32,000 nt of DNA from an uncultured Muribaculaceae bacterium (GCA_965231035.1 OZ246409.1:391101-423100), one strand, 5' to 3'. Positions 3,379-18,727 are shown, numbered from the stretch's first letter. Numbers and translations are program-made. Notes: generated from the sequence alone by a model not told the origin.

Positions 3379-4918
3379 AATTTAGTTCGACACTGATTTT
3401 CTGGCTGGTTCTGTATTTATCATGATTCACAGAATAAGATAAGTTTGCACCTGCCATGTCTTCAATGGACCAAAAGTTCACTCTGGCGCCAAAGGTCTGA
3501 ATATTATTTGTCTGTAATATCCCAAATAATTGATAATCATTTTTTATACCCAACATTTCATAACTACGTCCAATCATTCCGCCGCCCCGCCCTGATATTT
3601 TCGAATCGGATTGGTGCAAAACTTTCTGGTAATCCCCACCAATTCCAATAAATGGTGAAAAATAAAAATCTGATAAAAAGTCAAACTTTATGCCCGAATC
3701 AACAGTTCCATAAACCGAAGATCCATTTGGGTTATAAACAACTTTGTCACCATCAAAAATCATATCTGTTCCAAATGAAGCGAAAGTTGCTCCAACGACC
3801 GATTTTAACCACAAATTGTCATTTTTGATATACCCACGAATATTTCCTCCATACAAAAAGCCTGAAAAGTTGTTAATATCGTTATTATTTTCAAACTTAC
3901 CAGCATATACAGACAAAACGAAGTCTTGGTCTGTTATTAATGTTGAAAAAGACATTTTTCCACCGTATAAGCCCAATCCGTCCGAAGAAGAAATGTAAAG
4001 TGCTTCGAAACCATTAGATGCAGAATCATTAAATGTGTTTGGATTATTCGTTTCGAAATTATTAAATGTCTTTATTGGGTCTATTAAATTTATAGGATTA
4101 AATAACACCGACCGTCTCATAAGTTCATAAAGCCCTGCGGTACTGCTCTCTCGGTCCATTGCCTGCACCAAAGAATTATAGTGCGAACTGATTCGTAAAT
4201 TATTAATCATAATTCCACGTGATTTACCTAAAACTTTTTGATAATCGGTTTCGCGGTCAATACTAAGATAAATATTATCATCTTTGCGAATTGTAGTAGC
4301 TGTGTATAAACTTTCTAAACCTTCAACATCAACACTTATAACCCCGCTGCCTGAAACATTGGCAAGCAGTAAACTTCCGTCTGAAGCATATCTATTGTCT
4401 AATTTTAATCTATTTTCACCAATTAATTCTATTTGTGGTGAAACTAAAATGCTTTTATCAAGGTAAATATAAGCATTACTGAGTGTTAACTTACCTGCGC
4501 CGCCTGATATAGACAATATTTCAGAAAACTTAATATTGTCACTGTTATTAATCAGAATTGAATACTTATAATTATTTGTTGATAACTTAGAAATATCAGA
4601 ATTTGATCTTATAACCTGGGTTAAAGTTGAATTATTTCCAACATTTATTTTTCCTGAAATACTTCCACTGTTTTCCAAAACTAAATTACACCCATCGGTT
4701 ATATCAATTTCTCCGTTAATTCTACCCATATTATAAAAGTTCAAGGAATTATTTATATACAGGTTTTTTACATAAATAGAACCATTATTGCCAACAATTG
4801 TATCCTTGAAAATGTTATATTTTACCCCGGTTACTGGGCCATCAATAAAATCCGGCTCTTCTGAAAAGGCCGGCAATATTATGAGTACCATAATTAAAAA
4901 TACAATTATTTTTCTCAT
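3368..4918 (-). CDS. autotransporter-like outer membrane protein
   Basis: Signal peptide MRKIIVFLIMVLIILPAFSE, an N/S/G-rich repetitive passenger, and a C-terminal beta-barrel-like region with alternating aromatic/Gly residues ending in ...VELNFIF (terminal Phe, an OMP signature). Confidence 0.7.
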   Translation of the reverse strand: MRKIIVFLIMVLIILPAFSEEPDFIDGPVTGVKYNIFKDTIVGNNGSIYVKNLYINNSLNFYNMGRINGEIDITDGCNLVLENSGSISGKINVGNNSTLTQVIRSNSDISKLSTNNYKYSILINNSDNIKFSEILSISGGAGKLTLSNAYIYLDKSILVSPQIELIGENRLKLDNRYASDGSLLLANVSGSGVISVDVEGLESLYTATTIRKDDNIYLSIDRETDYQKVLGKSRGIMINNLRISSHYNSLVQAMDRESSTAGLYELMRRSVLFNPINLIDPIKTFNNFETNNPNTFNDSASNGFEALYISSSDGLGLYGGKMSFSTLITDQDFVLSVYAGKFENNNDINNFSGFLYGGNIRGYIKNDNLWLKSVVGATFASFGTDMIFDGDKVVYNPNGSSVYGTVDSGIKFDFLSDFYFSPFIGIGGDYQKVLHQSDSKISGRGGGMIGRSYEMLGIKNDYQLFGILQTNNIQTFGARVNFWSIEDMAGANLSYSVNHDKYRTSQKISVELNFIF

Positions 4919-5026: not shown

Positions 5027-5464
5027 ATGAATATTCTAAAAAAAGTTCATCAAACATTTTCCACCAAGAAAGATATAGATATTGTTATATCTTATATCAA
5101 AGCTTCCTTAAAATTCAATTTAGACTGTGCTAGGTTCCAGCAAGCAACAAAAATGGAAATCCATTCTGATGACAAATTGCTAAACCAGTCAGAACAACTT
5201 ATAAATTTGGTGATAAAAGATATAGAAGAAATCAAGAAATTCACCAACGCAGCAAAAGAAAGTTTAAAGAAAACAAAAAATTCTGGTTCCGAACTTTCCC
5301 CTGACGAAATTTTTACAATAGATATGTCAGCAATCAGGGATATTAAAAAAGTAGGTTTAACAAGAAAACTTAGCGATGACGAAAGAAAGTTGATTAAAAG
5401 TGCCACAAATAGATTTAACCAGGTTTATGCTGAACAAATAAAAGGTCTGAAATCCAAGGACTAA
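5027..5464 (+). CDS. hypothetical coiled-coil-rich protein
   Basis: 145-aa ORF preceded by a strong SD (AAGGAGATTGACATG). No family recognised. Confidence 0.5.
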   Translation: MNILKKVHQTFSTKKDIDIVISYIKASLKFNLDCARFQQATKMEIHSDDKLLNQSEQLINLVIKDIEEIKKFTNAAKESLKKTKNSGSELSPDEIFTIDMSAIRDIKKVGLTRKLSDDERKLIKSATNRFNQVYAEQIKGLKSKD

Positions 5465-5556: not shown

Positions 5557-5632
5557 GGGTGCGTAGCTCAGTTGGTAGAGCAACTGACTCTTAATCAGTG
5601 GGTCTGGGGTTCGAATCCCCACGCGCCCACCA
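5557..5632 (+). tRNA. tRNA-Lys (anticodon CTT), CCA encoded
   Basis: Hand-folded cloverleaf: acceptor GGGTGCG/CGCGCCC (one T-G pair), D arm GCTC-AGTTGGTA-GAGC, anticodon arm ACTGA-CTCTTAA-TCAGT, variable GGGTC, T arm TGGGG-TTCGAAT-CCCCA, discriminator A, then CCA. Confidence 0.9.
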
Positions 5633-5637
5633 GTGGT

Positions 5638-5659
5638 TTAAGTAATTGAAATTACTTAA
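5638..5659. repeat. perfect 10-bp inverted repeat with 2-nt spacer (TTAAGTAATT GA AATTACTTAA) 6 nt after the tRNA
   Basis: Read directly; the arms are exact reverse complements. Confidence 0.8.
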
Positions 5660-5675
5660 TAATTTAGTTAAATTT

Positions 5676-5702
5676 ATCCCGCAAAACTGCGGGATTTTTT
5701 AT
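5676..5702 (+). terminator. rho-independent terminator downstream of tRNA-Lys
   Basis: ATCCCGC-AAAACT-GCGGGAT hairpin (7-bp stem) followed by TTTTTTATT. Confidence 0.75.
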
Positions 5703-5825
5703 TGATTTTGACTATGGTATGGATACGTATCAAGTAAATATACCAGATATATCCCCAAATCTATCCACTGCCCATATTCTGATAGTCACACTTGGTAATA
5801 TTATTTATAAATAATATAAAGATTA

Positions 5826-6374
5826 TTAATTATTAACAAATTCAGATTTTAATTTTGAGAATACCATTGTATCTCCAATTCTTCCATCTGGATAGGGAAA
5901 GTCCTGTCTTAAAATACCATCAAGGTTATAACCCAATCTTTTAGGTATATTTTGACTGCTTATATTGTTCGTGTCACAATGGATTTCAATTTTGTTCCAA
6001 CCATCAATTTCGAACACTGCTTTTTCTAAAATTTTCACAGCATTTGTCATTATACCATTACCGCCAAACTTTTTATCCAACCAGTATCCAATCTCAACTT
6101 TTCTTTTACTTTCTTCTCGTTTTACAAAGCCTATTGATCCTATAACTTTATTATCTTTAAATATTAAGTATGTCCACTCTTTGTTATAAACGTGTGATAG
6201 ACCATCATATTCATCTGTTACAGAATTTGTTCTTGCAACCCAAGGTAGCCAATATCCAAGATATTCACGATTTCTTTCTACAATTTCAAAAACTTCTTTT
6301 GCAAGTTCAAAAGTTGGTTTAATACGACGTAATTCTATACCGTATTCATCTAATGTTTCTGGGAAATCTTTCAT
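5826..6374 (-). CDS. GNAT family N-acetyltransferase (RimJ/RimL-like)
   Basis: Acetyl-CoA motif A region KKFGGNGIMTNAVKILEKAVF, plus the family-typical IEIHCDTNNISSQNIPKRLGY and GILRQD. The ORF track starts at a TTG (6395); the ATG at 6374 has AAGGT 7 nt upstream. Lies 32 nt downstream of the recombinase gene on the same strand. Confidence 0.75.
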   Translation of the reverse strand: MKDFPETLDEYGIELRRIKPTFELAKEVFEIVERNREYLGYWLPWVARTNSVTDEYDGLSHVYNKEWTYLIFKDNKVIGSIGFVKREESKRKVEIGYWLDKKFGGNGIMTNAVKILEKAVFEIDGWNKIEIHCDTNNISSQNIPKRLGYNLDGILRQDFPYPDGRIGDTMVFSKLKSEFVNN

Positions 6375-6406
6375 AGTTTTACCTTTTTGTATCAAGTATA
6401 AAACTA

Positions 6407-8032
6407 TTATTTATAAAATTCAATCTCTTGCTCACTGAACTTTTCGTACTTACTTGCTATATCAAACAATGTTTGCAGGTTTATGGTGGCTGGTGCGTTG
6501 CCAGACATAATCGTGTTTATAATCTTTGGTGACATATAACAAAGATTTAAATACTTATAAACCGTTCGATGGTCGCGACCCATTTTGGTGGCAAGTTTTC
6601 GGACGGACATTCCATTCTCAATTTCACGTTTATACTTCCAGGCGTATGCCAATGCTCGTACCAGTGTGTTATTATTTTCTGATTTGGTCATTATTAATTT
6701 TTCACCACATTGGTGTTTATAGATAATTGAACTGGTACTGGCGATACTTATTTCTGTTTCAATCACAATATATTTTTCATCATCTGTTAAATAGCAATTT
6801 TCCATTTGATTATTAAATGCATTCATATAATTTTTATCTGTAAATATATCCAAATACTTCAAATCATCAGAGTTTATAAAAATCGTGATTTTATGGTCTT
6901 GATAAATAATCTTATCAATCATTGGGTTTATAATTGCCTCCGTATATTTAATCTGCTTAAACATCAGACGCTTTTCAGATGGCAGAAAGTTCATATCAGA
7001 ATCTAAAAACTGCCGCACAGTGTCAGATACTATTTTATCAATATGTCCCATTGGAATAGAATGCTTGCCAGCGCGATAATATTTGTATTGTTTTATACCT
7101 TTACGCCCAGATGAATTCTTGAACACCGTACCCGAAGTTGTTTGTATTTTATTATTTAATAAAGATGGTGCTCTTTTACAAACTGCATCACCACGATTAT
7201 TATTATTTTTTAATTTTTCTTGAACATTATTAAATAATTCTATATCAAGTATTTCAGGATGTTCGCCTTCAAAAATATCACCACTGGATTTATTTGGTAA
7301 TTTACCAAGAAATATAGGATTGGTCAGAAACCTTTGTAAAATTGATACGCCCATAATGTTGCCACCAATAGTTTTTCCTTTTTCTGTAATCCATTTTTTA
7401 CCATAAATCCCTTGTTCAATTAAACGTAATCTGCAATCAGACAAAGATGATGATTCCAGATAGGTTTCAAATATTTTCCGCACTATTGGAATCTCTGACT
7501 CATTCGGTACCAGCTTGTGAAACTTTATATCGTACCCCATTGGTGGCTTACCACCGACCCACATCCCCTTGGACTTGGTTGCGCGTATTTTATCGCGTAT
7601 ACGTTCGCCAGCAACCTCACGTTCAAACTCTGCAAACGACAGTAACATATTCAGCGTTAATTTACCCATGGCGCTATTGGTGTCAAAACTTTGTGTGATA
7701 CTGACAAGATTACAATTATGTTTATCAAACTCTTTCATCATACTTTTAAAGTCAAAAATACTGCGCGACAATCGGTCAATTTTATAAACCAGAACGCAGT
7801 CAATTCTGCCACTACGAATATCAGTCAGCATTTCTTGTAAAGCGGGTCGCACCATTGTTCCACCAGAAATCGCGGCATCACTGTAAGTTTTAATATATTC
7901 CCAACCTTGGAACGTCTGGGACATAATGTATGCCTTAGCGGCTTGTTCCTGGTTGTCCAATGAATTAAATTCCTGATCCAGGCCATGCTCGCTGGACTTA
8001 CGCACATAAATTGCACATCTTACATTTGCCAT
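6407..8032 (-). CDS. large serine recombinase (resolvase/invertase catalytic domain plus recombinase domain plus long C-terminal extension)
   Basis: N-terminus VRCAIYVRKSS (catalytic Ser region), VLVYKIDRLSRS, EFEREVAGERIRD, then GGKPPMGYD of the recombinase domain; about 540 aa total. The ATG at 8032 (MANVRCAIY) has AAGGA 6 nt upstream; an alternative upstream ATG is at 8056. Confidence 0.85.
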   Translation of the reverse strand: MANVRCAIYVRKSSEHGLDQEFNSLDNQEQAAKAYIMSQTFQGWEYIKTYSDAAISGGTMVRPALQEMLTDIRSGRIDCVLVYKIDRLSRSIFDFKSMMKEFDKHNCNLVSITQSFDTNSAMGKLTLNMLLSFAEFEREVAGERIRDKIRATKSKGMWVGGKPPMGYDIKFHKLVPNESEIPIVRKIFETYLESSSLSDCRLRLIEQGIYGKKWITEKGKTIGGNIMGVSILQRFLTNPIFLGKLPNKSSGDIFEGEHPEILDIELFNNVQEKLKNNNNRGDAVCKRAPSLLNNKIQTTSGTVFKNSSGRKGIKQYKYYRAGKHSIPMGHIDKIVSDTVRQFLDSDMNFLPSEKRLMFKQIKYTEAIINPMIDKIIYQDHKITIFINSDDLKYLDIFTDKNYMNAFNNQMENCYLTDDEKYIVIETEISIASTSSIIYKHQCGEKLIMTKSENNNTLVRALAYAWKYKREIENGMSVRKLATKMGRDHRTVYKYLNLCYMSPKIINTIMSGNAPATINLQTLFDIASKYEKFSEQEIEFYK

Positions 8033-8147
8033 ATTTATCCTTTTGATTATGCCCATTTACGCTCTGTTGGGACGCGAAGTCAAGTCGTTAAAACACTTGA
8101 TTTATAAGGTTTTGTAAGCATTAGTATGTATGTAAAAGAGGCAAGAT

Positions 8148-8471
8148 ATGGATAAAAAGCAACAGCAATATATGGCACAATGTAAAGTTACAGGTTATAA
8201 GATAGAACAAAAGCATTTAAGTAAATTGAATAAGTATTTAAAAGACCCAGATGGTTGTATCGAGCGTTCAATTAAAACAAAATATTATATAAAACCAGGC
8301 ACAAGAATTACGAAAAAATACAAAGGAAAAGAATACATTGTGACAGTGATTTCAGAAAACAAATTTATGTATAAAATGGATACTTTTGAAACACTATCAG
8401 CAGTAGCTGTCGCAATAACCGGCCATAAAGTTTCCGGTTATGAATTCTTTGGTTTTTATAATAAGCATTAA
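8148..8471 (+). CDS. DUF2924-like small protein (common partner of large serine recombinases)
   Basis: C-terminal pattern GTRITKKYKGKEYIVTVISENKFMY...FETLSAVAVAITGHKVSGYEFFGF resembles the DUF2924 signature (GT.l.R.wkG..h.V.v...gf.y.g..y.SLSaiA..ITGt.wsG..FFGl). Divergent from the recombinase gene. Confidence 0.55.
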   Translation: MDKKQQQYMAQCKVTGYKIEQKHLSKLNKYLKDPDGCIERSIKTKYYIKPGTRITKKYKGKEYIVTVISENKFMYKMDTFETLSAVAVAITGHKVSGYEFFGFYNKH

Positions 8472-8538: not shown

Positions 8539-8907
8539 ATGAGCGCAGAAAATATAAATTTTACAGGCAATGATAAATTTTTAGAATTTATAGTAGAAAT
8601 TTGGCGCCTTCCAAAATTATTCAAAAAGCTTATTGCAAAACAAGATTATAGCGAGCAACAAAAATACGTAAGTCAATTCAACTGGTTTAATAAAAAAGCT
8701 CTCGATTTTTTACAAAGTGAAGGACTCTCTTTTCCGGAATATGAAGATATGCCTTTTGATGTGGGTATGCCACTAACACCAATCAACATAGGCGATTTTA
8801 GTTCGGAAGATGAGTTGGTAATTGAACAAATACTGGAACCTGTTATTATGAAAGGTGACAAAATTATCAAAGCTGGCACAGCAATTCTAAAAAAGGCAGA
8901 GAAATGA
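8539..8907 (+). CDS. truncated GrpE-like protein (putative nucleotide exchange factor for the adjacent Hsp70)
   Basis: 122 aa. C-terminal half GLSFPEYEDMPFDVGMPLTPI...ELVIEQILEPVIMKGDKIIKAGTAILKKAEK parallels the GrpE beta-domain (G...G.pFDP..H.A......V..v.q.GY.l.gr.iR.A.V.V.K). The stop overlaps the Hsp70 start (ATGA). SD AAGGAT upstream. Confidence 0.5.
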   Translation: MSAENINFTGNDKFLEFIVEIWRLPKLFKKLIAKQDYSEQQKYVSQFNWFNKKALDFLQSEGLSFPEYEDMPFDVGMPLTPINIGDFSSEDELVIEQILEPVIMKGDKIIKAGTAILKKAEK

Positions 8908-11399
8908 AAAATTTTATCGGAATAGATTTAGGAACAACAAACAGTGCGATATGTTCGTATGACGGTGAACACGTGCGTATTTACAAAAGCCCTGATCAGA
9001 CCGATGTGACACCATCGGCAATTTACATTGATAAGCGTGGTAATAAGTATGTTGGAAAGCGTGCTTATGATTATATACCAAACGATCCTGATAACGTGGC
9101 TGTAAGGTTCAAAAGGCTGATGGGGACAAACACCCCAATAGAAATACCGAACCTAGGCAAGACAATGCTGCCAGAAGAATGCTCTGCCGAAATCTTAAAA
9201 GTTTTATTTAATTATCTGCCAGATGAACTACAAAAAGATCCCGATATAGGCACGATTATAACCACCCCAGCGGCGTTCAATCAGATGCAGAAAGAGGCAA
9301 CCCTGCAAGCAGCAAACATGGCTGGTATCGGGAAAGTTGCGCTTATGCAAGAACCTGTAGCGGCAATCATGAGCGTTATGAAAACGCGCCCTGAAGATGG
9401 GATTTTTCTAGTTTATGACTTAGGCGGCGGCACATTGGATGTCGCTGTAGCGGAAAGTATCAATGGTCATGTAAATTTACAGAGTCATGGCGGTATAGCA
9501 ATGTGTGGCGGGCGTGATTTGGATCGTCTATTGGTGGAAAATGTTGTTTATCCATGGCTTAGATCGAACTTTGATTTATCTTCTGAATTTTGGAATGATC
9601 CGAAATATAAATCGTTGGTACGTTTGGTTGCATATGCAACAGAACGCGCAAAAATAGATTTGTCTGCAAAAGAGGACGCAACAATCAGTCTATCAGAAAA
9701 TGAGGTGCGTATAAAAGATGATAAGAATGCTGATATATATTTGGACATCCCTGTAGATCGTAAAACTTATAACGGACTGATTTCAGAACGAATAGATGAA
9801 ACAATCAAAGCGGTTCGTGAAACCTTAGATAAGGCAGGATTGAAACCCGATGATGTAGTGCGGATTGTTTTTGTAGGTGGCCCGACTTGCTATAAACCGT
9901 TACGTGACAAAGTGTCTTCCGAACTAGGGATTCCAGCAAACACAGACGTAAACCCTATGACTGCAGTTGCTGAAGGTGCAGCTATATTTGCAGAATCAAT
10001 AGAATGGTCTTCACAGGATCGGTCGCGCAAAAACATGCGTGGCTCTGTCGAAGCACAAGGCGTTGTAAATGTAAAATTTGATTTTATCGCAAGAACTCCA
10101 GATGTAAAAACTAAGTTGGTAGTCAAACTGCCGGAAAAGACAAAAGGTAAATTTGAATTTCAGATTGATTCCACCGACTCTGGGTGGTCATCGGGTAAAT
10201 TATCATTGAAAGACGGGGTGACTATAGACTTAGTGCTGTCGAAGTTTGGCGAAAACAATTTTAAGGCATTTTTATTTAACGAAATCGGCGAAAGTATTGC
10301 ACTTGATCCGAATAAAATTGTGATCACACGAACTGCTGCAACAATCGACTCTATTCCGGCATCACATTCTGTCGGTATTGAAGTGTTGGATAAACTTGGC
10401 GGAACACCGATGTTGGATTATATGGTACGTTCTGGCGATACTTTGCCAAAACGCGGCAAGATGCAATTCAAGGCGGCTAACACATTGAAATCTGGTGATA
10501 CAGGCTCATTGAATTTCAAAATATGGGAAGGTGACATTGTGTCACCGATACTGGACAATCGTCTTGTTGGGGTTATGAAAATCACAGGAAAAGATTTTGA
10601 CGATGGGGTTATCCCTGCAGGTGCTGACATAGACCTATCATATGAAATGTCTGACGATGGAAACATACGTCTTGAAATAACGATACCAAGTATTCGTGGC
10701 TCGTTCAACTCTGGTCGAAACTTCTATTCGCGCCAAGAAGGACAACGTGACTATTCTGAAGCACCAGAGGCAATTAAAGAAGACGCAGAGTCTACAAAAT
10801 TACGTGCTGATGAAATGGCGACACATATAAGCGATCCCGAATTAGATAAGACAAGACAAAAACTAGATGAGGCATCATCGATATCCTCAGACGAAGTAGA
10901 TCCAGAAAAGACAAAAGAAGCCGAAGAAAAAGTATTCCAAGCAAAAAAAGATCTTGCCGTTATTCGCAAAAAACACTTGCGTGAAATACGACAGATGGAA
11001 TTAGATAATAAAACAGACTTTTTTAACAAATCCTTGCGCGAACATGCCACACCAGCTGACAAGTCCGCATTTGACAATTTGATAACAAGCGCAAAACGAG
11101 TAATTGATCGTGACACCAATGAATTTGAAGATTTCATAAACGAAATGGGCAGTAAAATTACGTCTGTACTTTGGAAGATGGACTGGTTTATTGTCGCAAA
11201 ATTCAAACATCTTGCTGAAAAACCATTTCTGTTCCAAGACAAGCCAAAGTTTAATATGCTGGTTAAAGAGGGATTAAGTGCAATACAACAGGATGACATT
11301 CCACACCTGCGTCAAGTGGTTGCTGAAATGACAATGATACAAGTTGGTGGCAGTTCAGGAATTGAAGATATGGACATTACAAACATCGTCAGAGGATAA
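8904..11399 (+). CDS. atypical Hsp70/DnaK-family ATPase (831 aa) with an inserted beta-rich module and a long helical C-terminus
   Basis: NBD motifs GIDLGTTNS, ITTPAAFNQMQKEATLQAANMAGI, LMQEPVAAIMS, VYDLGGGTLDVAV, IVFVGGPTCYKPLRDKV and NPMTAVAEGAAIFA. SBD-beta-like SVGIEVLDKLGGTPMLDYMVRSGDTLPKRGKMQFKAANTLKSG...FKIWEGD...IDLSYEMSDDGNIRLEI. Confidence 0.9.
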   Translation: MKNFIGIDLGTTNSAICSYDGEHVRIYKSPDQTDVTPSAIYIDKRGNKYVGKRAYDYIPNDPDNVAVRFKRLMGTNTPIEIPNLGKTMLPEECSAEILKVLFNYLPDELQKDPDIGTIITTPAAFNQMQKEATLQAANMAGIGKVALMQEPVAAIMSVMKTRPEDGIFLVYDLGGGTLDVAVAESINGHVNLQSHGGIAMCGGRDLDRLLVENVVYPWLRSNFDLSSEFWNDPKYKSLVRLVAYATERAKIDLSAKEDATISLSENEVRIKDDKNADIYLDIPVDRKTYNGLISERIDETIKAVRETLDKAGLKPDDVVRIVFVGGPTCYKPLRDKVSSELGIPANTDVNPMTAVAEGAAIFAESIEWSSQDRSRKNMRGSVEAQGVVNVKFDFIARTPDVKTKLVVKLPEKTKGKFEFQIDSTDSGWSSGKLSLKDGVTIDLVLSKFGENNFKAFLFNEIGESIALDPNKIVITRTAATIDSIPASHSVGIEVLDKLGGTPMLDYMVRSGDTLPKRGKMQFKAANTLKSGDTGSLNFKIWEGDIVSPILDNRLVGVMKITGKDFDDGVIPAGADIDLSYEMSDDGNIRLEITIPSIRGSFNSGRNFYSRQEGQRDYSEAPEAIKEDAESTKLRADEMATHISDPELDKTRQKLDEASSISSDEVDPEKTKEAEEKVFQAKKDLAVIRKKHLREIRQMELDNKTDFFNKSLREHATPADKSAFDNLITSAKRVIDRDTNEFEDFINEMGSKITSVLWKMDWFIVAKFKHLAEKPFLFQDKPKFNMLVKEGLSAIQQDDIPHLRQVVAEMTMIQVGGSSGIEDMDITNIVRG

Positions 11400-11402
11400 G
11401 CA

Positions 11403-12824
11403 ATGAAAAAAGATCCATGGTTCCCGAAAGAATATGAACCAACAAAAGGCGTGGTAGCAAAGTCCATGGTTTTTGTTGGCGACAAATGGCAGATATATAG
11501 ATTGGCTGACGGACAAAATATGCTGGTCGTTCGACCAGATTTGGCCGCTCTTTGGGAATCTAAAAAGCTTCTAGGTAAATCTATTTTAACCACCATAAAG
11601 TTTGGGGGAGAAGAGTTCAAGTTCTTAGTTTCTTCAGACAGATACATTCTTGCCCCGATTGATTACAACTTTTTCGCTGTAAATAAAGTCACAGCATTGG
11701 CATTTGCCACCGCACTTCGTGAATCGCGCAAGATTATGTCAGATATTTCATTCGAAGATTCTTTGTACACAGAACAATTTTCACGATTACTTCCAACCTC
11801 AGAATTACAGCAGGAAACCGATGATGGACTGTTGCTTGGAACTTGGTTGACTGGAGGTGTTCCCGTTTCAACAAAATCAATCCGTAGATTACAGAATTTG
11901 ACTTTGAACTTTTCTATGGGCGATCTTGAAGAAATCATTGAAGATGCCGGATTAACAGTACCAACAGTAAAAGGTGTGACGAAGAGTGCACCTAACAGTA
12001 CCGAGAAAGTAAAACAAAAAAGCGACAAATTTATATTGACCGGTGCAGAATATCTTGAACAATTTTTTAATGAAAATGTTGTAGATATTGTATTAAATCC
12101 CGAACGATATGAAGCTATGGGGATTTCATTTCCATCACCGATAATTTTGTATGGTAAACCAGGAACAGGAAAAACATACGCGGTCGAAAAATTGGCAGAG
12201 TTCTTGGATTGGCCAGTTTATTCAATTGATTCTGGAAGTGTCGGTAGCCCGTACATACACCAAACTGCGCAGAAAATATCAGCAACTTTCAATAAAGCAT
12301 TTGAAACATCACCAGCAATTGTAATAATTGATGAAATGGAATCTTTCTTGGGTAAACGTGAAGGTTCGCAAGATCATAAGGTGGAAGAAGTTGGCGAATT
12401 TTTGCGACTGATTCCCGAAGCGGCAAAAAATAAGGTGCTGGTTGTCGGTATGACCAATCTTCTTCAAAACATAGACCCTGCAATTTTACGAACAGGACGT
12501 TTTGATCACAAGATAGAAGTACGTATGCCAAGCAAAGAAGATATCAAAACAATGCTGGAAACCGCACTTGCTAAATTACCTGTGGAAGATGGAATTGTAT
12601 TAGATAAAATTGTAGATGCGCTGGTTGATCGTCCAAGATCGGATATCGCATTCATTGTAAAAGAAGCTGCACGTCTGACAGCATTCAAAAATAAAAGCAA
12701 AATATCACAAGAAGAGATGGATGCCTCCCTGCAGACAAAAACAATCAGTGCGGACATAGAACCAAAAAGAAGAACGATAGGTTTCACAGCAGCATCAGAA
12801 ACAAAAACAAAAGAAGACAAATAA
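11403..12824 (+). CDS. classical-clade AAA+ ATPase with an uncharacterised N-terminal domain of about 240 aa
   Basis: Walker A GKPGTGKT (12153-12176), Walker B IVIIDEMES (12321-12341), sensor-1/SRH VVGMTNLLQNIDPAILRTGRFDHKIEV, and lid RPRSDIAFIVKEAARLTAF. Starts 3 nt after the Hsp70 stop. Confidence 0.9.
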   Translation: MKKDPWFPKEYEPTKGVVAKSMVFVGDKWQIYRLADGQNMLVVRPDLAALWESKKLLGKSILTTIKFGGEEFKFLVSSDRYILAPIDYNFFAVNKVTALAFATALRESRKIMSDISFEDSLYTEQFSRLLPTSELQQETDDGLLLGTWLTGGVPVSTKSIRRLQNLTLNFSMGDLEEIIEDAGLTVPTVKGVTKSAPNSTEKVKQKSDKFILTGAEYLEQFFNENVVDIVLNPERYEAMGISFPSPIILYGKPGTGKTYAVEKLAEFLDWPVYSIDSGSVGSPYIHQTAQKISATFNKAFETSPAIVIIDEMESFLGKREGSQDHKVEEVGEFLRLIPEAAKNKVLVVGMTNLLQNIDPAILRTGRFDHKIEVRMPSKEDIKTMLETALAKLPVEDGIVLDKIVDALVDRPRSDIAFIVKEAARLTAFKNKSKISQEEMDASLQTKTISADIEPKRRTIGFTAASETKTKEDK

Positions 12825-12825
12825 C

Positions 12826-14577
12826 ATGAACATACTCCAGAACCCTTTCTACATCCTAGGTGCGACCCCTCGTGATAACCGACAGAAAATTATGGAATTG
12901 TCACAGGAAAAAAGTTTGAGCCTAGATCAATCAGTAGTAACAGAGACGCGATTGATACTTACCACACCACGGAAACGTATAATGGCCGAGATTGCATGGC
13001 TCCCAGGTGTAAGTAATAAAAAGGCACTGGAGCTGATAAAATCATTAAATGGTGCGATAATAGAACAGGACGCTATTTCAAGTTTGCCTGCACTGGCCGG
13101 TCTTAACGTTGTGACCACAATGCTATCTATAATGCAAAAAGCGGTGATACCACAAAAGAATGTTTCTGATATACTTTACAAGATGGCTGTTGATTTCGAA
13201 AGTATTGATACAGAAAAGCTTATAAGAATTCTAAATGAAGATCGCGCGGTCGCAGGTATTTCAGAAATCACAGATATCGCAGCTGTTGATTCAGATTTAC
13301 ATGAGCACAAGCTGACCTGTGTAAAAACAATTCAAGCCTTTTTGCAAAACTACACACAAAAACAAATTACAGCAACCATGTTGTCACTTGTGAATAAAGC
13401 TGTAAAAAATGGGCAAAAGTTGAGTCTAATTGATAGCTTTATAGACAATTTATACGCAATGGAAGTTCAGAAAGGACTACAAAAACTAGAAGATTCAATT
13501 GAAGCGTCTCGGCAGAAGATAAAAACAGGTTTGTCGAAAAAAAATCGCTCGAAAACATATATGACCGGACTGGTAGATGAATTTTTAAAAGAACTAGAAA
13601 ATTTTGATGAAATTATGCAACCTATACAGGTAAGTATGCAACAACGTGGTTTAGAGCACGAGGAAACAAAACATGTTGCAGATGAAGCCCGTGAATGTGC
13701 CATTGATTTGGTTCGAGCAGACGAGATGGAATTGTCGGAAAAAGTACTTTATAAAGTAAAAGAACTTTTTTCAGAACTTGGTTCTGTCGATGATCGTTCT
13801 ATAAGAGATCTGAATGATTTAGAAAATATCAAAAACCAGAATAGGCAACATGCCAAAGATATAACTTGCAAGATTGAGCAAAATGGATTTTGGAGCAACC
13901 ATTCTTTTGAAATTTCAGCAAATGGTATTAAAGTAGACGGAGAGTTAATTTGTAAACTAGAAAACATAAATGCAATACGTTATGGAATTACAAGAAAAAG
14001 CACGAATGGAGTTTATAGTGGAACGGATACTTTATTGGCATTTTCAACATCAGAAAATGAAACAATAATTAACTGGTTGGATCACAGTTCAAATTGGACA
14101 AAGGCTGCGGATTGTTTATGGAAGGCTGTTGGACCTCGTTTAGTTTTTGCGATGGCAAATGAACTAGCGCGTGGTGGAAATATATATGAAATAATTTATG
14201 ACAATAAAGTAAAGCTTGCAAAAACAAATACTTGGACTCCAGTCGAAGAAAAGTTTTTTAAATGGTCCGAAGTAAAAACCATGGTTGTTCAAGGTCAATT
14301 TATAATAGCTGCAAAAGATGGATCCGGATTTATGGCAACATTATCTCTTCAAGATATAGATAACGTACATGTAGCAGAAGCACTTATAAATGTATTTTTT
14401 AATACAGGTGGAACAAATATAAGTCAAGCATTCGGAATAACAAAAGAAGCTGCCAAAAAAGAAAAAAGAATTAAACTTAGCACACCAGTAAGCTTAGTTA
14501 ATTATTCGTTTTTGTGGTCTTGGTTCTGGGTTGTTTTTATAGGGGTTTTTTTGATAGTTTGGGCAGCAAATTCTTGA
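12826..14577 (+). CDS. tail-anchored protein with a J-domain-like N-terminus (no HPD), coiled-coil middle and C-terminal TM helix
   Basis: N-terminus NPFYILGATPRDNRQKIMELSQEKS...ETRLILTTPRKRIMAEI resembles J-domain helices II and III (DYYEILGV....eIkkAY..L / ayevLsdp.kR..YD), but no His-Pro-Asp is present. C-terminus LVNYSFLWSWFWVVFIGVFLIVWAANS is hydrophobic. Starts 1 nt after the AAA+ stop. Confidence 0.6.
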   Translation: MNILQNPFYILGATPRDNRQKIMELSQEKSLSLDQSVVTETRLILTTPRKRIMAEIAWLPGVSNKKALELIKSLNGAIIEQDAISSLPALAGLNVVTTMLSIMQKAVIPQKNVSDILYKMAVDFESIDTEKLIRILNEDRAVAGISEITDIAAVDSDLHEHKLTCVKTIQAFLQNYTQKQITATMLSLVNKAVKNGQKLSLIDSFIDNLYAMEVQKGLQKLEDSIEASRQKIKTGLSKKNRSKTYMTGLVDEFLKELENFDEIMQPIQVSMQQRGLEHEETKHVADEARECAIDLVRADEMELSEKVLYKVKELFSELGSVDDRSIRDLNDLENIKNQNRQHAKDITCKIEQNGFWSNHSFEISANGIKVDGELICKLENINAIRYGITRKSTNGVYSGTDTLLAFSTSENETIINWLDHSSNWTKAADCLWKAVGPRLVFAMANELARGGNIYEIIYDNKVKLAKTNTWTPVEEKFFKWSEVKTMVVQGQFIIAAKDGSGFMATLSLQDIDNVHVAEALINVFFNTGGTNISQAFGITKEAAKKEKRIKLSTPVSLVNYSFLWSWFWVVFIGVFLIVWAANS

Positions 14578-14594: not shown

Positions 14595-14888
14595 ATGAAT
14601 AAAAAAACATATTTAATATTGGCTTGTATTTTGCTGAGTATAGCGTTGTTACCTTTACCTTATGGTTATTATCAAATTTTAAGATTAGTAATTTTTATTT
14701 TGTCTGTTTGGATATTGATAGATAGTAATAATAAAGAAATAAGTTTACCAATCGGATTATTTATTACAGCAATTATTTATAACCCAATTTATATTATTCA
14801 TTTTGAAAAATCTGTATGGTCTTTATTTAACATTATTACATTAATTTATTTTATTTATCTGATATCACACAATAAACATAATGCATAA
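14595..14888 (+). CDS. small integral membrane protein (about 3 TM segments)
   Basis: 97 aa, with three hydrophobic stretches (YLILACILLSIALLPL, ILRLVIFILSVWILI, LFNIITLIYFIYLI) and a PYGYYQILRLV motif. Lies 17 nt after the preceding stop on the same strand. Confidence 0.55.
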   Translation: MNKKTYLILACILLSIALLPLPYGYYQILRLVIFILSVWILIDSNNKEISLPIGLFITAIIYNPIYIIHFEKSVWSLFNIITLIYFIYLISHNKHNA

Positions 14889-14913
14889 ATATATAAAATA
14901 CCCTATGGTTTAT

Positions 14914-15079
14914 AAAATTTCCCTGATACCCAAAATAAATTCCCTGTTAATTTTTTAGGGAATTTGGGTGGTATGGATTTTGGAAGGCTTGGTTTACATA
15001 GGTTCTGGCAGATTGGTGTCGACAAAGACAGGTAAAATATGGGGTAAAAATGAAAATATTCCCTGTAAATTCCCTGTTA
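14914..15079. repeat. cluster of short iterated (A/T)TTCCCTG motifs, including an exact 13-nt direct repeat and a 9-bp inverted repeat
   Basis: AAATTCCCTGTTA occurs at 14937-14949 and again at 15067-15079. AAATTCCCT (14937-14945) pairs with AGGGAATTT (14957-14965). Additional copies: TTTCCCTG at 14918-14925 and TATTCCCTG at 15057-15065. Confidence 0.8.
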
Positions 15080-15133
15080 TTTGAAATTCTGGGATGGGAA
15101 ACGTTGGTGCAGATTACGCCACCACCAGAAAAT

Positions 15134-15163
15134 AAAAACCACCATTTTGGTGGTTTTATTTTT
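15134..15163. terminator. bidirectional-looking rho-independent terminator
   Basis: AACCACCA-TTT-TGGTGGTT hairpin (15137-15155) with an A-run upstream and a T-run downstream. Confidence 0.6.
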
Positions 15164-15281
15164 AGAATTATAAAATTTAAAAAACAAATTTTATATATAA
15201 AATCATTTTATAATATTCATAAAATAATCTCGAAAAACTAAATACATAACATAAAATATAATCATAAAATTATTGTTTGAA

Positions 15282-15326
15282 TTTTGTATATACACAAAAA
15301 ATATTTTCGATTTTTTTTGTATATAC
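15282..15326. repeat. 12-nt direct repeat TTTTGTATATAC (two copies, 33 bp apart) containing the palindrome TGTATATACA
   Basis: Copies at 15282-15293 and 15315-15326, about 170-210 nt upstream of the 15496 ORF. Confidence 0.7.
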
Positions 15327-15495
15327 GAACGCTTTCTAATCTTCTGAAAAGTGCAGAAAATGGGCTTTATACAGTGTAAAAAACTCTGTTAATAACAAAA
15401 AAAATTTCATCGTCAAGTTATAAAAGTGTGTTTCTTGAATTGCAAATCAAAATCTTGGTTCTAGGATTATCGTCATATGTTAGGAGGGAAAACAT

Positions 15496-16017
15496 ATGAA
15501 CAAAACTTTTGTATTACTAAAACAACTTTTTAACTTTAAACCAACAATAATAAAACAGGAGTATGAACTAAAAAACGATACAAATATAAATAATAAAAAA
15601 ATTTCCAAGTACCACAGTGTATCATACGAAGAACTTCGAGAAAATACTTTCGTTGAACTTTTTCTTGAAGAAAAATTCAATAAAGTTCAAGAAATAAACC
15701 TTGTATATTCGGAAATACAAACTTTATTATATCTTAAAGAAGACGTATCTAAACAGTTAGTTCAGAAATTAAAAGAATCTCTGGAAAAATATGAAAGAAT
15801 CGATTGGCCAGCCGTTAAATCTGTAACGAAAAAAGCAACTCCAACTCGTACAGTTTTAACCCATTTCAATTTTATCAAGAGAACACTTCAGATGTCACAC
15901 GAGCTTTACTCGGATATAAAACAAACTGAAATGGCAAGGGCACAAGAAATTTACACAATGGTTGATATTAGAAAAAGGAATATAGTTTCATCTTGGGTTC
16001 CCTCTATGAGTATGTAG
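15496..16017 (+). CDS. hypothetical protein (173 aa)
   Basis: Strong SD (TTAGGAGGGAAAACATATG) and a GC-rich terminator follows. No family recognised. Confidence 0.55.
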   Translation: MNKTFVLLKQLFNFKPTIIKQEYELKNDTNINNKKISKYHSVSYEELRENTFVELFLEEKFNKVQEINLVYSEIQTLLYLKEDVSKQLVQKLKESLEKYERIDWPAVKSVTKKATPTRTVLTHFNFIKRTLQMSHELYSDIKQTEMARAQEIYTMVDIRKRNIVSSWVPSMSM

Positions 16018-16034
16018 TTTTCTATACTCATAAT

Positions 16035-16066
16035 AAAAACGCCCCGAAAGGGGCGTTTTTATTTTT
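16035..16066. terminator. bidirectional rho-independent terminator between the 15496 ORF and ppdK
   Basis: AAAAACGCCCC-GAAA-GGGGCGTTTTT followed by ATTTTT, located between convergent genes. Confidence 0.85.
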
Positions 16067-16069
16067 ACA

Positions 16070-18727
16070 TTACTTACGCGGCTTTTTAACCGCGGCTTGG
16101 GCTGCTGCCAATCTGGCGATTGGTACACGGAAAGGACTACACGATACAAAGTCCATACCACATTCATGAAAGAATTGTATTGATTCTGGATCGCCACCAT
16201 GTTCACCACAAACACCAATGTGAATATTGTGACCTTTGACTTTACGTCCCAATTCAACTGCATTCTTTACTAATTTACCAACTCCGTTTTGATCAATTGA
16301 AACAAAAGGATCTGCAACATAAACACCACGAGCACGATATTCTTCCAAAATTGTACCAGTATCATCACGTGACATTCCCAGTGTGGTTTGTGTCAAATCG
16401 TTTGTTCCAAATCCAAAGAATTCTGAAATTTCTGCAATTTCATCAGCCAACAATGCTGCACGTGGCAATTCAATCATTGAACCAATCTTGTATTCAATTT
16501 TTGAACCCTTGGCTGCGAATATTTGTTCTGCAGTGCTTTCTATTACAGATTTTACAATATCCAATTCTTTCTTTGAACCAACCAATGGAACTTCTATTTC
16601 AGGTATTACTTTTACACCTGCAGATTTACATTCAATTGCAGCCTCCAGTATTGCGCGAGTTTGCATTTCAGCAATTTCAGGATAAGTGATTACCAATCTG
16701 CAACCACGGTGTCCCAACATTGGATTCTGTTCATGCAAAGCGTTGCTGCGTTCTTTGATAAATTCAACTGGTTTACCAATATGATCCGACAGTTCTTTGA
16801 TTTCAGCGTCCGTATGTGGCAAGAATTCATGCAATGGTGGATCAATCAAACGAATCGTAACCGGCAGACCATCCATAATTTTGAACAGGTCCACAAAGTC
16901 TTGTCTTTGATATGGTAACAGTTTTTCCAATGCTATGCGACGACCTGCTTCGTCAGATGCCAAAATCATTTCACGCATATCTTGGATACGTGATGGGTCA
17001 AAGAACATATGTTCTGTACGCGCCAGACCGATACCTTCGGCACCAAAACTGCGCGCCATCTTTGCGTCACGTGGGGTTTCTGCATTTGCACGAATTTCCA
17101 GTGATTTAATCTGGTCTACCCATTCCATCAATTTTCCAAAGTTTCCTGTCATCTCAACCGATACAGTTGGAACCTGACCTTCGATAATTTCACCCTTGGC
17201 ACCATCAATAGAAACCCAATCACCTTCCTTAATAACTGCACCAGATGTTGTTTTCATAGTCTTGGACGCATAGTCGATTTTAATATCAGCACATCCAGAA
17301 ACGCATGGACGACCCATTCCGCGTGCAACAACCGCCGCGTGTGATGTCATACCACCACGTGCTGTGATAATACCCTGGGCGGCATCCATACCTGCAATAT
17401 CTTCTGGGCTGGTTTCAATACGAACCAGCATAATTTTTTCGCCACGTTTTTTCCATTCTTCGGCATCATTGGCTGAAAATACTGCACGACCAACTGCTGC
17501 GCCTGGGGATGCAGGCAATCCAGTTGCGATAATATTCTTTGGTGCCTTTGGATCCAACATAGGATGTAACAGATGATTTAACTGATCTGCACCAACTCGC
17601 AAAATTGCCTCTTCTTTGGTCAGTAATTTTTCTTCTACCATTTCAACAGCAATGCGAACTGCGGCTGCGGCTGTACGTTTTCCATTTCTGGTCTGCAACA
17701 TCCACAGTTTTTTATGTTCGATAGTAAATTCCATATCTTGCATATCTTTGTAATGATTTTCCAGTTTGTTACGTGCTGCAAATAATTCTGCAAAAACTTC
17801 TGGCATGGCTTCTTCCAAAGAAACACGACCACTTTTATCATGTGTCATTGGTTGTGGTGTGCGAATACCAGCCACAACGTCTTCACCTTGGGCATTGATT
17901 AAATATTCGCCATAGAATTTATTTTCGCCAGTTGCAGGGTCGCGTGAAAAACATACACCAGTCGCCGAATCATCACCTGAATTTCCAAATACCATTGCCT
18001 GAACATTCACTGCTGTTCCCCAATCACCTGGAATGTTATTCAACTTACGATAAGTAACTGCTTTCTTGGTCATCCACGAACCAAATACTGCACCAATACC
18101 TGCATACAGTTGTTCCCAAGGATCTTGTGGAACTGGTTTACCTAAATTTTCACCAATCTTTTTAAATTGAACAACCAGTTCTTTTAAATCAGCAACTGTT
18201 AATTCATTATCAAATTTATAACCTTTTTCATCTTTCATATGTTCCAATGTGTGTTCGAACAAATCGATATCAGCTTCCAAAACAACATCCGAAAACATCA
18301 TCAAGAAACGGCGGTACGAATCGTATGCCATACGTTCATCACCAGTAAATTCAGCCAAACCTTTAACTGTTTCGTCATTCAAACCCAAATTCAAAACAGT
18401 ATTCATCATACCAGGCATAGAAACACGTGCCCCAGAACGAACAGATAACAACAAAGGATTCTTTAAATCGCCAAACTTATGACCCATAACTTTTTCAACA
18501 TGAGATATACCCTGTTCAACCTGGCCTTTTAAATCATTAGGATAGTTTTTATTATTTTCATAATAATAAGTACAAACCTCGGTCGTGACGGTAAATCCTG
18601 CTGGAACCGGCAGACCAACCAGGTTCATTTCTGCAAGATTTGCACCCTTGCCACCCAAGAGATTTTTCATATCTGCTTTTCCTTCGGCTTTGCCATCACC
18701 AAAGGTATATACCCATTTGTTTGACAT
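16070..18727 (-). CDS. ppdK: pyruvate, phosphate dikinase
   Basis: 885 aa. N-terminus WVYTFGDGKAEG...LLGGKGANLAEM, phospho-His region GGMTSHAAVVARGMG, PEP/pyruvate domain IGLARTEHMF and GTNDLTQ, and GVCGEHGGDP near the C-terminus. Confidence 0.95.
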   Translation of the reverse strand: MSNKWVYTFGDGKAEGKADMKNLLGGKGANLAEMNLVGLPVPAGFTVTTEVCTYYYENNKNYPNDLKGQVEQGISHVEKVMGHKFGDLKNPLLLSVRSGARVSMPGMMNTVLNLGLNDETVKGLAEFTGDERMAYDSYRRFLMMFSDVVLEADIDLFEHTLEHMKDEKGYKFDNELTVADLKELVVQFKKIGENLGKPVPQDPWEQLYAGIGAVFGSWMTKKAVTYRKLNNIPGDWGTAVNVQAMVFGNSGDDSATGVCFSRDPATGENKFYGEYLINAQGEDVVAGIRTPQPMTHDKSGRVSLEEAMPEVFAELFAARNKLENHYKDMQDMEFTIEHKKLWMLQTRNGKRTAAAAVRIAVEMVEEKLLTKEEAILRVGADQLNHLLHPMLDPKAPKNIIATGLPASPGAAVGRAVFSANDAEEWKKRGEKIMLVRIETSPEDIAGMDAAQGIITARGGMTSHAAVVARGMGRPCVSGCADIKIDYASKTMKTTSGAVIKEGDWVSIDGAKGEIIEGQVPTVSVEMTGNFGKLMEWVDQIKSLEIRANAETPRDAKMARSFGAEGIGLARTEHMFFDPSRIQDMREMILASDEAGRRIALEKLLPYQRQDFVDLFKIMDGLPVTIRLIDPPLHEFLPHTDAEIKELSDHIGKPVEFIKERSNALHEQNPMLGHRGCRLVITYPEIAEMQTRAILEAAIECKSAGVKVIPEIEVPLVGSKKELDIVKSVIESTAEQIFAAKGSKIEYKIGSMIELPRAALLADEIAEISEFFGFGTNDLTQTTLGMSRDDTGTILEEYRARGVYVADPFVSIDQNGVGKLVKNAVELGRKVKGHNIHIGVCGEHGGDPESIQFFHECGMDFVSCSPFRVPIARLAAAQAAVKKPRK

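Follow-up and report, generated by a model that had tools for sequence, protein, structure and literature searches.

The window considered here, a 32,000-nucleotide stretch of DNA from an uncultured Muribaculaceae bacterium (GCA_965231035.1 OZ246409.1:391101-423100), contains on its + strand, at positions 8904-11399, an open reading frame (ORF) that begins with ATG, remains open for 831 codons and encodes an Hsp70 of 831 residues. The architecture of this protein defines a large, horizontally spread Hsp70 family that lies outside DnaK and HscA. Moreover, we consider it reasonably likely that the Hsp70 serves as the motor of a self-contained, mobile multi-gene system (here termed the cassette), the likeliest role of which is to counter phages or other mobile DNA. 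Defence is favoured because the cassette is carried as cargo by mobile elements, namely, integrative elements, integrative and conjugative elements (ICEs) and plasmids, and is repeatedly found beside known defence systems.

Domain architecture of the Hsp70

The Pfam HSP70 family (PF00012) matches residues 5-364 of the protein (E 3.9e-51; 174.4 bits against a gathering cut-off of 20.6), and solved DnaK chains in the PDB align solely to residues 1-366 (1-364 in the case of G. kaustophilus DnaK). The remaining 465 residues are named by no Pfam, NCBIfam or PADLOC model. An AlphaFold2 model based on 37 homologues, with a mean predicted local distance difference test (pLDDT) score of 79.4, presents, in order, a nucleotide-binding domain (NBD), a floppy connector (residues 369-378), a seven-stranded all-beta module (378-476), a low-confidence connector (477-485), a second beta module (490-602), nine helices (620-812) and a disordered end (816-831). 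When the whole model was compared with full-length DnaK using Foldseek, 640-790 columns were aligned (E 1e-32 to 1e-28). The domains of the Hsp70, with the evidence used to delimit each, are as follows:

8904-10001, + strand: NBD, residues 1-366 (Pfam HSP70, DnaK alignment)
10035-10331, + strand: inserted immunoglobulin (Ig)-like beta-sandwich, residues 378-476 (AlphaFold2, family conservation, weak Pfam matches)
10332-10361, + strand: linker-like segment TAATIDSIPA, residues 477-486 (low pLDDT, family motif, hhalign register)
10362-10718, + strand: beta subdomain of the substrate-binding domain (SBD-beta), residues 487-605 (hhalign, Ssc1 profile match, Foldseek)
10761-11339, + strand: helical region, residues 620-812, of which the first half is lid-like and the second an orphan (AlphaFold2, Ssc1 lid)
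11376-11396, + strand: C-terminal motif (T/A)NI(I/V)RG, at the end of the disordered tail (family conservation)

A first-pass annotation of this DNA had correctly given where the NBD ends, where the SBD-like segment starts (residue 490, nucleotide 10371, at SVGIEV) and how large insert and tail are, as judged from hhalign and the AlphaFold2 model. Insert and tail are, moreover, not confined to this one protein, being kept in full-length relatives at a constant length of 823-864 residues down to ~25% identity.

The catalytic elements of the NBD were considered across 34 diverse relatives (32-68% identity). Little or no variation is seen at D8, K70, E150, D172, G174-176, T177 and D179, with D8, K70, E150, D172, T177 and D179 being the equivalents of DnaK D8, K70, E171, D194, T199 and D201, respectively, in an alignment with G. 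kaustophilus DnaK. Because these residues are conserved across the 34 relatives, the Hsp70 is predicted to be, and should be, an active ATPase. Ala146 is aligned with the DnaK Arg that contacts the HPD motif of the J-domain, a substitution in keeping with a cassette in which no canonical J-domain protein was found.

Of the two beta modules, the second is a genuine Hsp70 SBD-beta. With hhalign, a family profile built from 34 sequences equated residues 487-591 with E. coli DnaK 396-487 (probability 86%, E 5e-6). Likewise, a profile of residues 367-831 matched the SBD fragment of mitochondrial Ssc1 over residues 507-708 (E 1.4e-4). The hhalign register, in which SHSVGIEV is paired with PLSLGIET, places TAATIDSIPA at the position of the DnaK VLLLDVT linker, where the DnaK sequence reads VLLLDVTPLSLGIET. 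Across the family, the consensus of this region is ITRTxAxxxxIPASHSIGxEV, directly preceding the first strand of SBD-beta. Since both the register and family conservation thus place TAATIDSIPA at the linker position, the linker has not been replaced, as had been proposed in the first-pass annotation; rather, a conserved linker-like segment is retained there, with the Ig-like domain being inserted upstream of it. A hydrophobic DVLLLD linker directly following the NBD is absent, with a segment of ~110 residues standing there instead.

The inserted domain itself comprises ~100 residues folded in the AlphaFold2 model into seven strands and zero helices, and is kept across the family, including the motifs DTGWTSG and GEN.F. 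Recurrent weak Pfam matches point to Ig-like folds, with Cadherin-like PF12733 being matched in six members (best E 1.8e-4) and further weak matches being obtained to Big_1, Big_6, Big_9, YtkA and Invasin_D3. The earlier proposal of a beta-sandwich between the NBD and SBD-beta is borne out. A duplicated SBD-beta was also considered as the identity of the insert and ruled out (hhalign probability 1.7%).

The C-terminal region is, as had been anticipated, long and helical, reaching about twice the length of the DnaK lid. The accompanying claim that this tail does not resemble the DnaK lid applies to only part of it: residues ~620-708 align with the lid helices of Ssc1, whereas the last ~120 residues form an orphan extension, for which no match was found and in which no Pfam family recurs among members. 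This extension is the better-conserved half of the tail. Comparison of the two tail halves ruled out an internal repeat. At the very end of the protein, where pLDDT falls below 50 (residues 816-831), N827, I828 and G831 are invariant in close relatives and ANIxRG is present in most of the 34 diverse relatives; this NIxRG motif may serve in docking.

The same evidence bears on whether the protein still undergoes a chaperone cycle. Were the linker replaced and the NBD and SBD uncoupled, the Hsp70 would be a passive sensor or scaffold. We hold this to be very improbable: the ~100-residue domain that separates NBD from SBD, a linker-like segment less hydrophobic than DVLLLD of DnaK and Ala146 all point in that direction, whereas a conserved linker-like motif at the canonical position, the conservation of all ATPase residues and the strict co-inheritance of a dedicated GrpE-like gene, described below, point away from it, the last because such a gene only makes sense if nucleotide cycling matters. 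A sensor role in itself, as raised in the first-pass annotation, is conceivable. The protein is an Hsp70 of the working type, with a catalytic NBD, a linker-like segment, an SBD-beta and a lid, to which two family-defining additions have been made, namely, the Ig-like domain and the helical extension that ends in NIxRG.

That these additions define a family is reflected in database searches. More than 100 clusters at 60-85% identity share the length of the Hsp70 and span Verrucomicrobiota, Elusimicrobiota, Desulfobacterota, Nitrospirota, and Gamma- and Alphaproteobacteria. An exhaustive search with residues 367-831 returned 707 clusters at E<=1e-3, with full-length members of 823-864 residues being found to ~25% identity and no ordinary DnaK SBD appearing among the 150 best matches listed. 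When genomes were searched, one per species, with a four-sequence alignment of the C-terminal part as query, relatives were detected at 189 loci. In the databases, these relatives are labelled solely as 'Hsp70 family protein' and their neighbours as 'hypothetical' or 'ATP-binding'. As proposed earlier, the protein is neither DnaK nor HscA, scoring about one third of the NCBIfam cut-offs or less in a comparison that covered the DnaK equivalogs NF001413 / TIGR02350 (193.5 vs 648 bits and 189.3 vs 822.6 bits) and the HscA models NF003520 / TIGR01991 (186.6 vs 620 bits and 177.3 vs 708.6 bits). Similarly upheld is its description as a specialised Hsp70 rather than a general folding chaperone, given that it is horizontally mobile and accompanied by its own partner genes.

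The conserved cassette and its partner proteins

Within the window, the Hsp70 gene is one of five genes on the same strand, encoding a 122-residue protein, the Hsp70, an AAA+ ATPase, a 583-residue protein and a DUF6804 protein, and separated by overlaps or gaps of 1 to 17 nucleotides. About 80 loci, drawn from more than 10 phyla, keep the order small protein, Hsp70, AAA+, 583-residue-like protein, which recurs in essentially all loci with sufficient flanking sequence. The four partners of the Hsp70 in the window are:

8539-8907, + strand: GrpE-like protein, 122 residues, putative nucleotide-exchange factor (sub-threshold collinear Pfam GrpE match)
11403-12824, + strand: AAA+ ATPase, 473 residues (Pfam AAA, E 5e-29)
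12826-14577, + strand: core partner, here termed the adaptor, 583 residues, tail-anchored (AlphaFold2, conservation)
14595-14888, + strand: DUF6804 multi-pass membrane protein, 97 residues, clade-specific last gene of the cassette (Pfam, E 3.1e-17)

In ~75 of 81 loci, as well as in the distant three-gene branch described below, the gene immediately preceding that of the Hsp70 encodes the small protein (~124 residues in the family), its stop codon in the window overlapping the Hsp70 start by 4 nucleotides. GrpE (PF01025) is matched below threshold by 13 of 23 family members. In 10 of 10 members, residues ~38-80 are collinear with positions 77-124 of the GrpE profile, the scores being 11-15 bits where the cut-off is 25.8. 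A comparison with the E. coli GrpE sequence by hhalign gave the expected register without significance, and a single-sequence search of the PDB with the small protein returned zero matches. True grpE or dnaJ genes were found in none of the 81 loci. From these sequence patterns, we infer that the small protein may be a minimal GrpE-like exchange factor.

The AAA+ protein, encoded next after the Hsp70 in nearly all of the ~80 loci, contains a single classical Cdc48/VAT-type module (residues ~213-453) preceded by an orphan N-domain. Its best relatives in the PDB are VAT, Cdc48 and p97 (E 3.5e-52 to 1e-39).

The adaptor (~550 residues in the family) is conserved in all cassette clades and is matched by no Pfam family or PDB sequence. 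Its AlphaFold2 model (pLDDT 91.1) is all-helical over residues 7-346, followed by beta-plus-helix modules at 348-448 and 461-527 and by a C-terminal transmembrane helix at 561-582, on account of which the protein is described as tail-anchored. Foldseek returned only weak matches to TPR and other helical-repeat folds (E 0.02-0.3), with which the adaptor encoded on a Pseudomonas hygromyciniae plasmid (L092, 4307-6427) is in agreement, as it combines a bona fide-looking TPR N-terminus with the conserved C-terminal beta modules. A J-domain, suggested by the NPFYILG start of the adaptor, was also sought and rejected. DnaJ (PF00226) was not matched in 22 members at E<=10, no J-domain was found in a PDB profile search or among the top Foldseek matches, and hhalign gave a probability of 16% with the HPD region deleted.

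Together, Hsp70, GrpE-like protein and AAA+ protein form a complete-looking chaperone set with intact catalytic residues, as might be expected of a transferable proteostasis or stress-tolerance module that, like a heat-resistance island, would supply the host with an extra Hsp70, exchange factor and AAA+ disaggregase. Such a role is, however, quite improbable, since the AAA+ protein is of the single-ring Cdc48/VAT type and not ClpB or ClpG, the cassette is linked to neither a J-domain protein nor a small Hsp or protease, its proteins are associated with the membrane and the neighbouring genes are those of defence and not of stress.

Beyond the shared core, the cassette varies by clade. In clade A, which includes the window as well as other Muribaculaceae, Clostridia, Puniceicoccales and gut Alphaproteobacteria, the cassette ends with small multi-pass membrane proteins, with a DUF6804 gene being found at the equivalent position in L004-L008. 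Clades B and C, mostly from Proteobacteria, Desulfobacterota and Nitrospirota, encode one to three extra single-pass membrane proteins, the periplasmic parts of which present PG_binding_1 together with Cys-rich repeats, an SLT transglycosylase or unknown domains. At residues ~9-30, these otherwise different proteins share a near-invariant cytoplasmic N-terminal tag, K(K/G)GF(S/A)GLS(D/S)Lx(S/T)(D/E)V, which in short reads KKGFSGLSDLxSDV and takes the peptide form KKGFSGLSDLVSDV. Across 56 loci, 84 occurrences of the tag were counted, with a single match outside the cassette, and the tag looks like a dedicated recognition element. Tagged proteins, identified by the tag pattern, include:

L001, 15631-18237: tagged protein
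L012, 12537-14915: tagged protein
L058, 10849-12336: tagged protein
L058, 15570-16622: tagged protein

No tagged protein was found in the clade of the window, even with a loose pattern.

The C-termini of soluble adaptor homologues from clades B and C (e.g., L001, 13978-15624) read G..R(L/I)SxLL, loosely like the tag core GLSxL. In the clade of the window (14380-14577), a basic stretch and then the transmembrane anchor come after this position. The adaptor C-terminal motif may be the same recognition element as the tag.

In the most distant branch, encoded on plasmids of Sinorhizobium, Aminobacter and Pseudomonas (22-25% identity), the AAA+ protein is missing and the core consists of adaptor, small protein and Hsp70. 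A transmembrane helix joins the adaptor of Aminobacter and Sinorhizobium to the periplasmic module of the tagged proteins, with the Aminobacter fusion additionally containing peptidoglycan-binding repeats. These fusions functionally tie the adaptor to the peptidoglycan-binding membrane proteins and speak for action of the whole system at the membrane.

Mobile context and defence neighbours

In the window, the cassette occupies an island of ~10 kb beside a tRNA-Lys gene, with housekeeping genes lying on both sides outside ~5.5-16 kb. The features that border the island are:

5557-5632, + strand: tRNA-Lys(CTT), left border
5826-6395, - strand: GNAT acetyltransferase, left border
6407-8056, - strand: large serine recombinase, left border
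8148-8471, + strand: DUF2924 protein, left border
14889-16069: AT-rich right end (GC content 0.28-0.30), between DUF6804 and pyruvate phosphate dikinase
15496-16017: ORF of 173 residues without family match, in the right end
16070-18727, - strand: pyruvate phosphate dikinase, a housekeeping gene to the right of the island

The region 5557-8471 probably served the integration of the island, as its integration module and attachment site, and the unit of recombinase, DUF2924 and cassette recurs in Muribaculaceae (L002) and Clostridia (L007). Two ORFs to the left of the tRNA gene, at 3368-4918 (- strand; 516 residues) and 5027-5464 (+ strand; 145 residues), have no Pfam match.

Other copies are similarly mobile. 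In Thiohalobacter, the cassette lies between the F-type tra genes of an ICE, 14 plasmids carry a copy, seven of these being conjugative, and elsewhere the cassette is found in islands with integrases, toxin-antitoxin genes and insertion sequence (IS) elements. No relative of the Hsp70 was found in phage genomes or records, nor was a copy of the Shewanella-type cassette found in complete E. coli genomes.

Defence genes recur among the neighbours. Directly downstream of the cassette, a complete Hachiman system (PADLOC; HamA E 7e-111, HamB E 3e-260) is encoded in L012 (14919-17397), L013, L014, L018, L022 and L024, at least six loci of differing taxonomic origin in all. Type I restriction-modification genes are found upstream of the cassette in Elusimicrobia and Thermodesulfovibrionales, while HsdR, UvrD and toxin-antitoxin genes neighbour the Shewanella cassette. 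In Sinorhizobium, a Gabija-like pair (UvrD and an ATP-dependent endonuclease) lies near the cassette. On a Sinorhizobium medicae plasmid (L083, 6023-10425), the distant-branch Hsp70 gene is split by an ISNCY transposase and adjoins a large DNA methyltransferase and a UvrD helicase/ATP-dependent endonuclease pair.

Otherwise, the flanks are unrelated between loci, with 422 flanking ORFs falling into 322 clusters. PADLOC, applied to 126 flanking proteins, returned only a redundant list of type I restriction-modification models and affords no proper enrichment statistic. Unrelated flanks combined with recurring defence neighbours fit the classic signature of a defence-island passenger.

A different purpose, namely, cell-wall remodelling in support of, for example, conjugation or establishment of the element rather than immunity, would apply if the cassette encoded an envelope or membrane-protein biogenesis and quality-control machine that is carried on mobile elements and in which Hsp70 and the Cdc48-like AAA+ protein serve to insert, extract or recycle tagged peptidoglycan-binding membrane proteins, in the manner of endoplasmic reticulum-associated degradation (ERAD) or the mitochondrial import motor. 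We consider this unlikely. Accessory proteins with PG_binding_1 or SLT lytic-transglycosylase domains, the membrane-tethered adaptor, a core with no recognisable killing effector, the copy between tra genes and the conjugative nature of half of the plasmids are all in its favour. The cassette is, however, also found on non-conjugative islands and non-mobilisable plasmids and recurs beside Hachiman, type I restriction-modification and Gabija-like genes, and the clade of the window is without any peptidoglycan-binding component.

Proposed working and comparison with known systems

The cassette, as such, probably encodes a membrane-associated, dedicated Hsp70/AAA+ machine that acts in defence, with the mechanism being one that we infer. 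The adaptor would bring the Hsp70, perhaps by way of its NIxRG tail, to the cytoplasmic side of the membrane, and the small protein would serve as nucleotide-exchange factor for the Hsp70. The SBD, the AAA+ ring or pore, or both, would engage cytoplasmic segments of membrane proteins, these being the N-terminal tag of single-pass peptidoglycan-binding or SLT proteins in other clades and the adaptor itself and the DUF6804 membrane protein in the window. ATP-driven binding, pulling or unfolding might then switch an envelope-directed, presumably defensive, response.

A more far-reaching version of this proposal, to which we assign a small but real chance, holds that the cassette represents a new class of immune or conflict machine, in which a tethered Hsp70 and a Cdc48-like unfoldase would grip the tag and couple cell-wall events to a response. 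Here, the membrane-tethered Hsp70, with its mini-GrpE, Ig-like insert and C-terminal docking motif, would grip peptidoglycan-anchored tagged proteins, and ATP-driven pulling or extraction resembling that of ERAD or the mitochondrial import motor would let cell-wall events (phage entry, for example) elicit a response in the cytoplasm or envelope.

Several observations weigh against the main proposal of a defence machine. Tagged proteins are absent from the clade of the window, such that the client model reaches the window locus by analogy only. The core cassette contains no nuclease, NADase or other classic effector, and the defence role is argued from neighbourhood alone. When known anti-phage systems were searched (PADLOC-DB v2), no model matched the Hsp70, small protein or adaptor, with the AAA+ protein alone resembling IetA/TRIP13. 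The GrpE assignment is sub-threshold in Pfam, with a profile search of PDB sequences finding no GrpE. A J-domain in the adaptor is unsupported. Finally, DnaK allostery requires hydrophobic linker residues and D393 (Mayer, 2021; PMC8215388), and the linker-like segment is without the hydrophobic VLLL run so required.

With DnaK-GrpE-(DnaJ) and ClpB, the cassette shares an Hsp70 that combines a catalytically complete NBD with SBD-beta and lid, as well as an adjoining exchange-factor-like gene and AAA+ cooperation. It differs from the DnaK system in its Ig-like domain before the linker, non-canonical linker and extended C-terminal domain, in a GrpE-like protein that is only ~124 residues long and sub-threshold, in that no J-domain or HPD motif was found, and in being mobile and patchy rather than housekeeping; unlike ClpB, the AAA+ protein is single-ring and Cdc48/VAT-like.

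Two eukaryotic cases offer analogies only, since homology was shown no further than the Hsp70 core. Hsp110/Grp170 proteins have a divergent linker, insertions inside SBD-beta and the lid (and not before the linker) and lid extensions. The Ssc1-Tim44-Pam16/18-Mge1 import motor of mitochondria pulls on polypeptides at a membrane by means of a tethered Hsp70 that works with a J-like partner and an exchange factor of the GrpE type.

Aberrant or specialised bacterial Hsp70s are already known, including HscA, HscC with DjlB/C, myxobacterial 'DnaK derivates', CnuD and the Hsp70-GrpE modules of GTPase conflict systems. E. coli HscC and the tail-anchored DjlB/DjlC resemble the present system in combining a specialised, sporadic Hsp70 with a tail-anchored membrane partner, membrane-protein clients being thought likely. 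HscC is described as short, with a shortened lid, an L1,2 insertion, the J-domain partners DjlB/DjlC, no use of GrpE and no pre-linker domain (PMC8215388). That description is not matched by the Hsp70 considered here, the 831 residues of which include both the insert and a long tail, and which is accompanied by a GrpE-like protein and by a membrane partner without detectable J-domain.

CnuD of type III CoCoNuT systems likewise presents an Hsp70-like NBD/SBD followed by a helical (HEAT-like) domain, and is found in defence loci with an NTPase neighbour. CnuD, however, has degenerate Walker-like motifs, McrB-type GTPase (NxD) and HEPN nuclease partners, and predicted RNA binding (Bell et al., 2024; PMC11090510), whereas the present Hsp70 has intact catalytic residues, is paired with a classical AAA+ protein and has no linked nuclease. 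Similarly, the regulatory engine of the predicted GAP1-N2 GTPase conflict systems is an Hsp70 accompanied by a GrpE of its own. Those modules of Hsp70, GrpE and DnaJ-FNIII are GTPase-centred, occur in actinobacteria and firmicutes and contain a real DnaJ domain (Kaur et al., 2020; PMC7159879); here, there is neither GTPase nor DnaJ domain. Lastly, the best PADLOC match of the AAA+ protein is IetA (E 4e-27) of the IetAS system (Gao et al., 2020), yet its score is 85.6 bits against an NCBIfam IteA cut-off of 510, its N-domain differs and the cassette is without the IetS protease.

In the searchable literature and in PADLOC, NCBIfam and Pfam models, no description of the architecture, the cassette or the client-like tag was found, the literature considered for the cassette including the DefensePredictor, CoCoNuT and Kaur et al. 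(2020) papers and reviews on Hsp70. The family offers a tractable entry point, being both large and sharply delimited, having kept its catalytic residues and being accompanied by its own co-factors and, in many genomes, by a candidate client tag. A domain inserted between NBD and linker is, in effect, a natural experiment on how much rewiring Hsp70 allostery tolerates. If the defence reading is true, the cassette would represent chaperone/unfoldase-based bacterial immunity without nuclease or NADase and a prokaryotic parallel to Hsp70-Cdc48 membrane-extraction systems. Should the coupling of cell-wall events to a response also prove true, it would be the first Hsp70-powered trans-envelope defence system.

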